The notes below the pieces were generated by a model. It had not been told where the DNA came from. It saw only the letters and a list, made by a program, of their open reading frames with translations, and did no database searches. The translations under genes and the position numbers were made by a program. From the NCBI GenBank assembly GCA_000004695.1, contig CM000153.2, positions 4,224,001 through 4,288,000 on the forward strand: 64,000 nt of DNA, read 5' to 3'. This stretch comes from Dictyostelium discoideum (taxonomy: Eukaryota). This document shows positions 58,916-60,908 of the stretch, in pieces (positions within the stretch are counted from its first letter, which is position 1; each line of letters starts with the position of its first letter).

Positions 58916-60908
58916 ATGAAACCAATAGTATTATTAATTTTAATTATAAATTTATTATTGGTTATAAATTTAGTTAAAAGTGATGAAAGTTGTTATTTAT
59001 TAAAACAATCATTATTATTTTATAAAGCTCAAAGAGCAGGTAGATTACCAGATAATGATATTCCATGGAGAGGTAATTCAGTATTAAATGATAAGAGTGC
59101 AGGTTCATCAGTTGATTCAAATGGTGATGGAGATTTATCAAAAGGTTATTTCGATGCTGGTGATGGTGTTAAATTTAACTTTCCAATGGCTTATTCAATG
59201 ACAATGTTGGGTTGGTCCTATTTAGAATATTCTGGAAATATTGAAAAATGTGGTTTAGCTTCACTTTATAAAGAAGTTTTAAAATGGGGTACAGATTTCT
59301 TAATTGCATCACACACATCTGATAATGTTTTTGTAGTTCAAGTTGGTAATGGAGATGTTGATCATTCAGTTTGGCAACCACCAGAAGATATAAACTATGT
59401 CCGTCAAATTTATACCATTGATCCAAGTAATCCAGGTACTGATATTGCAATGGAAGCAGCATCAGCATTGTCAGCAGCATCATTAGTATTTAAAACAAGC
59501 GATCCTACCTATTCAGCCAAATGTTTACAACATGCTCAAAAATTGTATTCATTTGCAATTACATCACAAATGAAAGTTTGTACTGCTTCCAATTTTTACC
59601 AATCATCAGGTTATTGGGATGAAGTTACCTGAGGAAGTATTTGGTTATTCAAGGCAACAAATAATCAAACCTATATGAATAATGCTGCTTTATATTATAC
59701 CTATGATAATACTAGATATGCAAATGAATTTAGTTGGGATAATAAAGGTGTTGGTGCAATGTTATTATTATATCAATTAACAGGTGAATTAAAATATAAA
59801 GATAATTTAGAAGCTGCATTTAATGTTTGGCAACCAGGTAGTACATCAAATGTTATTACATATACAAAAGGTGGTTTAGCTGTAAGAATTTTTTTTTTTT
59901 TAAAAAAACTTATTAATTTACAAAAAAATTTACTAGAATACTAAAACTTTTTTTTTTTTTTTTTATTTTTAAAAAATTAAGTGGTTACGTGAATGGGGTC
60001 CATGCCGTTATTCATTAGTAATGGGATTCCTTCAATCTGTTTATTCAATAAAAAATGGAGGTGATTCAAAATATAATACATTTTATAAAAGTCAATTATC
60101 ATATGTTGTAGGTAATAATACCAATAAGCAATCATTTATTACAGGTTATGGATCAAAAGCACCAAAAAATCCACATCATCGTGCTGCTCATCATTCAACA
60201 ACTAAAGGTAAATTATTAAAATATTAATAATTCTTTTCCAATTCTATAGAGTTAATTTTTTTAATTTTATTAATATTTTTAATTTTTTTTTTTAACATCA
60301 TCAAAGATATCAATAATCCAGTAAATAATACATATCAATTACCAGGAGCTTTAGTTGGAGGACCAGGAAAAAATGATGAATGGTCAGATGATAGATCAAA
60401 CTATGTAACAAATGAAGTTGCATTGGATTATAATGTTGGCCTTGTTGGATCACTCTCTGCATTTGCAACTGGTTCCGAAGCAACCTCATCTTCAACTGGT
60501 TCAACAACCCCATCAACCACTTCAACACAATCAACAACTGGTTCAACCACTACTTCACAACCAACAACTGGTTCTACTACTGCATCTCAATCTACAACTA
60601 GTTCAACTACTGGAACTCAATCAACAACATCAAAGACAACAGCTTCCACTACAGGTTCTCAATCAACAACTACATCTACTACGTCTCAATCAACAACTAG
60701 TTCATCTCAATCAACAACAACATCAAAGACAACAGCTTCCACTACAGGTTCTCAATCTACAACTACATCTCAGTCCACAACAACTTCAAAACTTGGTGAA
60801 TCAGAATCTGATGATCATCTTGGTGACTCTGTTTCCTCATTCATTGGAAGAGCTGATTCAGTTTTGTTAATATTACTTTCATTAATTTCTTTGATTTTTA
60901 ATCTTTAG
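58916..60908 (+). CDS. Glycoside hydrolase family 9 endoglucanase (cellulase) with a signal peptide, a Ser/Thr-rich linker and a C-terminal hydrophobic tail. Contains an in-frame TGA at 59630-59632. Exons: 58916..59881, 59982..60207, 60307..60908.
   Basis: GH9 signatures are present: [51 protein letters not shown], ...TKGGLA|[11 protein letters not shown] (phase-0 GTAAGA intron), HHRAAHHS, ...[39 protein letters not shown]. Donors GTAAGA at 59882 and G|GTAAAT at 60208 (phase 1). The TGA falls in YWDEVT-*-GSIWLF, exactly where GH9 enzymes have the conserved Trp of DELLWAAAWL. Confidence 0.8.

Follow-up and report, generated by a model that had tools for sequence, protein, structure and literature searches.

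The window analysed here is a stretch of 64,000 nucleotides from chromosome 4 of Dictyostelium discoideum, with a G+C content of about 21%, long homopolymer runs and short AT-rich introns. On its forward strand lies a nuclear gene of three exons for an endo-beta-1,4-glucanase (endoglucanase) of glycoside hydrolase family 9 (GH9), followed by a GST-like gene. The features of the two genes are as follows.

58916–60908, plus strand: GH9 endoglucanase gene, apparently a disabled allele, delimited by splice junctions, Pfam and colinearity with intact orthologues of 577–599 aa
58916–59881, 59982–60207 and 60307–60908, plus strand: exons of the GH9 gene, from the sequence and its splice junctions
59882–59981 (GTAAGA..AAG) and 60208–60306 (GTAAAT..AAG), plus strand: introns of the GH9 gene, both canonical GT..AG
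58916–58981, plus strand: predicted N-terminal signal peptide, suggested by the hydrophobic N-terminus and conserved in orthologues
59153–59164, plus strand: DAGD motif (aa 80–83) with the GH9 catalytic Asp pair, upstream of the premature stop; aligned to DAGDHVKF of Thermobifida fusca E4 (PDB 1JS4)
59630–59632, plus strand: premature stop TGA at codon 239; ancestral codon TGG (Trp), mutated base G>A at 59632
59675–59677, plus strand: first in-frame ATG downstream of the stop (Met254), start of the 344-aa model in the AX2-type GenBank annotation
60174–60182, plus strand: HHR motif (aa 387–389), intact, downstream of the stop
60411–60434, plus strand: NEVALDYN motif (aa 433–440) with the catalytic acid Glu, intact, downstream of the stop; aligned to NEVATDYN of T. 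fusca E4
60471–60809, plus strand: Ser/Thr-rich linker, encoded by imperfect tandem repeats; at 60466–60790 these are nested, and their periods are 30, 45, 63, 72 and 93 nt
60858–60905, plus strand: hydrophobic C-terminal tail of 16 residues, from translation and alignment
60906–60908, plus strand: terminal TAG of the GH9 gene in the spliced frame; conceptual product of 597 aa
61901–63138, plus strand: GST-like gene DDB_G0286341, used as synteny anchor; four exons, with a spliced product of 324 aa identical to EAL64346.1 / XP_637828.1

In the open reading frame list of the window, the frame that starts with the ATG at 58916 ends after 238 aa at the TGA at 59630–59632. This TGA, at codon 239, is the sole internal stop in the spliced GH9 frame of 597 codons. 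The 358 codons downstream of it are all open; at the base composition of the window, which predicts stops at about 9.5% of codons, a run of this length would arise by chance with a probability of about 3e-16. The first-pass annotation had reported an in-frame TGA at this site, with the reading frame and the GH9 motifs continuing through it. Both the position and the quoted peptide context were exact, and one unbroken Pfam match was obtained when Trp was placed at codon 239. An alternative intron that would skip the TGA was ruled out by inspection: the surrounding DNA is coding in composition and codon-for-codon colinear with the orthologues, and such an intron was rejected because it would delete invariant residues.

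With Trp at codon 239, the Pfam family PF00759 (Glyco_hydro_9) matches aa 28–446 of the conceptual product (HMM positions 4–443 of 444; E = 3e-138), with a score of 462 bits against a cut-off of 27.7, and the match spans the stop. The conceptual product consists of a signal peptide, the GH9 domain, the Ser/Thr-rich linker and the hydrophobic C-terminal tail. PF00759 was the only Pfam match in this product, and no carbohydrate-binding module was detected by Pfam. The length of the linker varies among strains and species, solely through in-frame insertions and deletions. The C-terminal tail is identical in six of the seven aligned sequences and differs at three residues in D. firmibasis; it may act as a signal for GPI attachment or anchor the protein in a membrane. 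The roles of the DAGD Asp pair, the HHR motif and the acid Glu in NEVA.DYN are those that we take to be established for GH9 enzymes. Profile match and catalytic residues are thus both present at this locus, and the uninterrupted frame of an active enzyme is absent. The sequence itself identifies the locus as a GH9 gene by descent that, as written, would encode no GH9 enzyme.

The Trp at the site of the stop was claimed to be universally conserved, and the alignment bears this out. The best 120 homologues, which came from dictyostelids, a plant and many bacteria, were aligned, and 120 of 120 have Trp in the column of codon 239. The closest solved structure, T. fusca Cel9A/E4 (PDB 1JS4), aligns end to end with the catalytic domain (E = 1.4e-100), and shares with it the DAGD, HHR and NEVA.DYN motifs. 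In this enzyme, the residue opposite the stop is the W of DELVWGAYWLY. Unlike the window gene, T. fusca E4 is bacterial and carries a fused CBM3c module, and in the Dictyostelium protein a deletion removes the counterpart of its known cleft residue W209. It had also been claimed that the enzyme would be truncated before half of its catalytic domain. The stop indeed cuts the catalytic domain. It does so at the midpoint of the domain, with 211 of the 419 Pfam-matched residues in front of it, and not ahead of the domain.

We compared the gene with its counterparts in seven relatives: two assemblies of wild D. discoideum (GCA_054859385.1 and GCA_054859355.1), two of D. cf. discoideum (ACTFIZ and ACTFIY), D. 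firmibasis, D. citrinum and D. dimigraforme. The syntenic loci were reached through cluster members of the GST-like neighbour. The matches listed in the homology search reached at most 82% identity, although proteins of at least 90% identity (P0121, P0122 and the orthologues of 594–599 aa) are in the collection; absence from that search is therefore no evidence of absence, and the synteny look-ups were needed. A full-length protein of the GH9 gene itself was not found in the protein collection, including the AX4 proteins. The orthologues with complete genes were:

RB653_000365 (KAK5580349.1), 577 aa: D. firmibasis, syntenic, 82% identity
ACTFIZ_002255 (KAM9985941.1), 594 aa: D. cf. discoideum, syntenic
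594 and 599 aa: orthologues in GCA_054859385.1, GCA_054859355.1 and ACTFIY, syntenic

In all seven relatives the GH9 gene adjoins the GST gene and codon 239 encodes Trp. The five fully aligned orthologues are complete genes of 577–599 aa. At the DNA level the codon is TGG in each of the five aligned relatives (GCA_054859385.1, GCA_054859355.1, ACTFIZ, ACTFIY and D. firmibasis), as expected from the single TGG to TGA change that the first reading had implied; TGA occurs only in the window and in the AX2-type assembly described below. In D. citrinum and D. dimigraforme the Trp is found in YWDEVTWGSIWLF, and the matching segment contains no stop. The syntenic orthologues share with the window gene the three exons, the signal peptide, the GH9 domain, the Ser/Thr linker and the hydrophobic tail, with 82–97% protein identity in exon 1. 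In contrast to the window allele, they carry TGG at codon 239 and are intact. By position and sequence, the window gene is a syntenic one-to-one orthologue of the endoglucanases of the sister species.

The relative orientation of the two neighbouring genes differs by clade. The GH9 and GST genes are arranged head-to-tail in the discoideum clade (58916–63138 in the window) and tail-to-tail in D. firmibasis (6001–9398 of the extracted locus), D. citrinum (8001–11406) and D. dimigraforme (8001–11872), which points to a small inversion on the stem of the discoideum clade. The region upstream of the GH9 gene is structurally variable among strains (window 54131–58300 compared with 351–2700 of extracted locus L004 and 3144–5397 of L007). 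A block that contains a profilin gene, at about 54.1–55.8 kb of the window, is inverted relative to GCA_054859385.1. The adjacent segment at about 55.9–58.3 kb is missing from GCA_054859385.1 and GCA_054859355.1 and is present in part in ACTFIY; the AX2-type annotation places two genes on its minus strand, with products of 181 and 207 aa. No Pfam match was found in the open reading frames of this AX4-specific upstream segment, including the genes of 181 and 207 aa. Within the same segment, the 15-nt tandem repeat TATGATCAGTTTCAC occupies 56635–56753 (7.9 copies, 95% matches), and perfect TTA trinucleotide arrays at 56322–56392 and 56541–56591 flank it. In D. firmibasis (1747–3694 of the extracted locus) and D. 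citrinum (13729–15652), a further gene of about 585–594 aa lies beyond the profilin gene, and similarity at the DNA level pairs it with about 47.4–49.9 kb of the window (open reading frames at 47583–48356 and 48621–49436).

An exact-sequence look-up of the 238-aa open reading frame returned an identical protein from a second assembly, GCA_054883475.1 (CM142510.1; KAM9942101.1, ACTFIT_005473 [Dictyostelium discoideum]). The two sequences are 100% identical over all 1994 bases of the gene, including the TGA. Over 6.7 kb they differ by three homopolymer lengths and one SNP, and by nothing else. In the pairwise comparison, these differences were located at:

57923–57929: homopolymer-length difference (A7)
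58833–58844: homopolymer-length difference (T12)
61207–61208: homopolymer-length difference (T2)
61616: T/A SNP, intergenic

The homopolymer-length differences could be artefacts of the sequencing technology or true variation. Together with the SNP in the flanks, they indicate that GCA_054883475.1 was assembled separately, from a near-identical strain, and is not the same record. The assembly series of Holland, Ahmed, Young and Levin (PNAS 2025, PMC12745789) consists of de novo assemblies of combined Nanopore and Illumina data, with AX2-214 as its only laboratory strain. Based on the strain list in PMC12745789 and its near-identity to the window, GCA_054883475.1 is probably AX2-214; for the window itself we infer the AX4-type reference. 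In the annotation of GCA_054883475.1, the disabled gene appears as two adjacent 'hypothetical proteins' of 238 and 344 aa (3001–3717 and 3760–4993 of the extracted locus), which correspond to 58916–59632 and about 59675–60908 of the window. These two GenBank models are halves of one pseudogene. The downstream product of 344 aa, as spliced here, had no exact match in the protein collection.

To estimate how the gene has evolved, we calculated pairwise dN/dS ratios for the catalytic domain among the aligned orthologues. Most ratios were 0.13–0.17, and the two closest pairs had 0.26. These low values indicate ordinary purifying selection on the gene wherever it is intact. The available wild genomes diverge from the laboratory lineage by at least 2.6% over the codons of the catalytic domain. 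When substitutions were polarised by parsimony, the AX4 branch had seven nonsynonymous changes, including the stop, and six synonymous changes, compared to 36 and 74, respectively, on the other branches pooled; with so few substitutions, the excess is not significant (Fisher p = 0.22), and sequence change by itself would not establish that function was lost. Downstream of the stop, the AX4 branch had two nonsynonymous and five synonymous changes by a strict count, and three and seven by a relaxed count. It had no frameshift, even in the repeat-encoded linker, and both introns retain GT..AG. The lack of decay downstream of the stop, together with the preserved frame and splice sites, suggests that most of the AX4 branch was under constraint and that the nonsense mutation is recent.

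The first-pass annotation had considered a sequencing or assembly error, a strain-specific null allele and stop-codon read-through. A change of a single base at an invariant residue of an otherwise perfect gene has the look of a base-call error, in which case the true codon of the sequenced strain would be TGG. The annotation had named TGG in independent sequence as the sign of such an error. However, the codon was again TGA when the lineage was sequenced independently: the second assembly was built de novo from Nanopore and Illumina data, its flanks differ from the window, and its annotators also split the gene at codon 239. The recurrence of the TGA in an independent de novo assembly implies that it is not a sequencing error, and we attach only a minimal probability to this explanation. 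An old, decaying pseudogene of a redundant paralogue would fit with the ratio of 7:6 on the AX4 branch, which is somewhat above the 36:74 elsewhere, and with the presence of other GH9 paralogues in the genome, such as DDB_G0286321 and DDB_G0271314. Yet the difference between the branches is not significant (p = 0.22), a single disabling lesion is present next to intact GT..AG boundaries and a frame free of frameshifts, synonymous changes exceed nonsynonymous changes downstream of the stop, and the orthologue is intact in every relative examined. An old pseudogene is therefore highly improbable.

Recoding of the UGA was considered in two forms. In eukaryotes, tRNA-Trp is known to decode UGA at a basal level as a near-cognate. 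Insertion of Trp is the most frequent near-cognate misreading of UGA, and at this locus it would restore exactly the ancestral protein; at a useful rate, it would make the allele leaky and not null. The absence of decay in the half of the gene downstream of the stop would be in keeping with such functional read-through, but it is equally expected from a recent mutation. What characterises programmed read-through, namely a conserved stop, a leaky context or a stimulatory structure, was not found here. The context is UGA-G-GA and not of the leaky UGA-CUA type. No stable structure was detected downstream of the stop: a segment of 121 nt that begins just ahead of the UGA had a minimum free energy of −15.2 kcal/mol compared to a mean of −18.1 kcal/mol for shuffled sequences (z = +0.92). 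Furthermore, the stop is missing from all seven relatives, which argues that this is no conserved recoding site. These findings speak against the read-through that had been suggested at first, and a useful rate of decoding seems very unlikely. Basal decoding by tRNA-Trp would yield the wild-type protein at trace level, and nothing points to programming. A naturally leaky hypomorph, in which a small fraction of ribosomes makes the wild-type enzyme, has a similarly slight chance; if true, the locus would be an endogenous reporter of UGA read-through in Dictyostelium, and leakiness might account for the undecayed downstream half. Selenocysteine insertion, the other form of recoding, would be in keeping with the UGA codon, and Dictyostelium has the selenoprotein machinery. 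In contrast, neither a SECIS element nor any other relevant RNA family was found in 58500–61900 (Rfam, E ≤ 10), where only sub-threshold snoRNA-like noise was seen. Neither Cys nor Sec occurs at the corresponding position in the sequences compared: 120 of 120 homologues and every orthologue have Trp there. The selenocysteine reading is effectively excluded.

The gene had also been labelled a cellulase of the spore-germination type. Among the matches listed, the closest AX4 protein of D. discoideum was DDB_G0286321 (Q54M00), with 67% identity. DDB_G0286321 is likewise a GH9 endoglucanase and has the general layout of the window gene, but it is a separate paralogue, located outside the window and intact in AX4. 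Its orthologue in ACTFIY is found about 8 kb past the GST gene on the same chromosome. The product of celA belongs to the same CAZy family, is secreted, and has a Thr-rich repeat region after its catalytic domain. The window gene differs from celA in having no Pfam carbohydrate-binding module and a hydrophobic tail at the C-terminus. In the work of Ramalingam, Blume and Ennis (1992), as cited in PMC3188802, celA (270-6) is the spore-germination-specific GH9 cellulase of D. discoideum. The spore-germination tag of the window gene appears to have been borrowed from celA, which is probably a different locus. With Pfam assigning the window gene to GH9 only and DDB_G0286321, not a protein named celA, as its closest AX4 protein among the matches listed, the label lacks support, and none of the results connects the gene with spore germination.

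Hence, of the explanations first offered, the strain-specific null allele is the one that the comparisons favour. TGA was found in two independent assemblies of laboratory strains, while the relatives have Trp in seven of seven cases, read as TGG in five. The lesion is thus reproduced in independent sequence, and the syntenic orthologues are intact and constrained. A single lesion in an otherwise intact gene, with constrained and intact orthologues in all relatives examined, points to a lineage-specific null allele. As far as the genomic sequences allow, we consider it very probable that the window contains a recent TGG to TGA null allele of a conserved GH9 endoglucanase, a nascent unitary pseudogene in the lineage of the laboratory strains. 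Lineage-specific nonsense alleles of laboratory strains likewise carry a single disabling point mutation in a gene that is otherwise intact and conserved in relatives, and the case described here is not different in kind.

According to this null-allele interpretation, one G>A transition would have changed the TGG of the invariant Trp239 into TGA, and translation would end after 238 residues. The resulting fragment would still contain the signal peptide and the Asp pair of DAGD, but the HHR motif, the catalytic acid Glu434 and the second half of the (alpha/alpha)6 barrel would be missing. With these parts lost, the 238-aa fragment could not be an active cellulase. A product initiated at Met254 would have neither the signal peptide nor the Asp pair. 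Both introns follow the stop, so that nonsense-mediated decay may act on the mRNA. The full-length protein would accordingly seem to be lost from the laboratory lineage. AX2 and AX4 are separate derivations from NC4. If the strain identifications are right, the TGA shared by the AX4-type and AX2-type sequences is, by this strain history, probably older than their split and was present in the parent NC4.

A literature search found no paper that describes this GH9 locus or its stop, and it found a single mention of DDB_G0286321, in an unrelated toxicology paper. The null allele is implicit in the public annotation, where the protein is not found among the AX4 proteins and the AX2-type record is split in two. 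The finding does not touch the genetic code, recoding or any open question, and represents an ordinary kind of event; it is useful mainly as an annotation note, of modest practical value. For the biology of D. discoideum, it would mean that the standard laboratory lineage (AX4-type and AX2-type) is without one GH9 endoglucanase, whereas the wild relatives examined keep the gene under purifying selection. The laboratory strains would be natural knock-outs for this enzyme, which is a caveat for studies of cellulose remodelling in the slime sheath, stalk and spore coat, and for counts of CAZymes.
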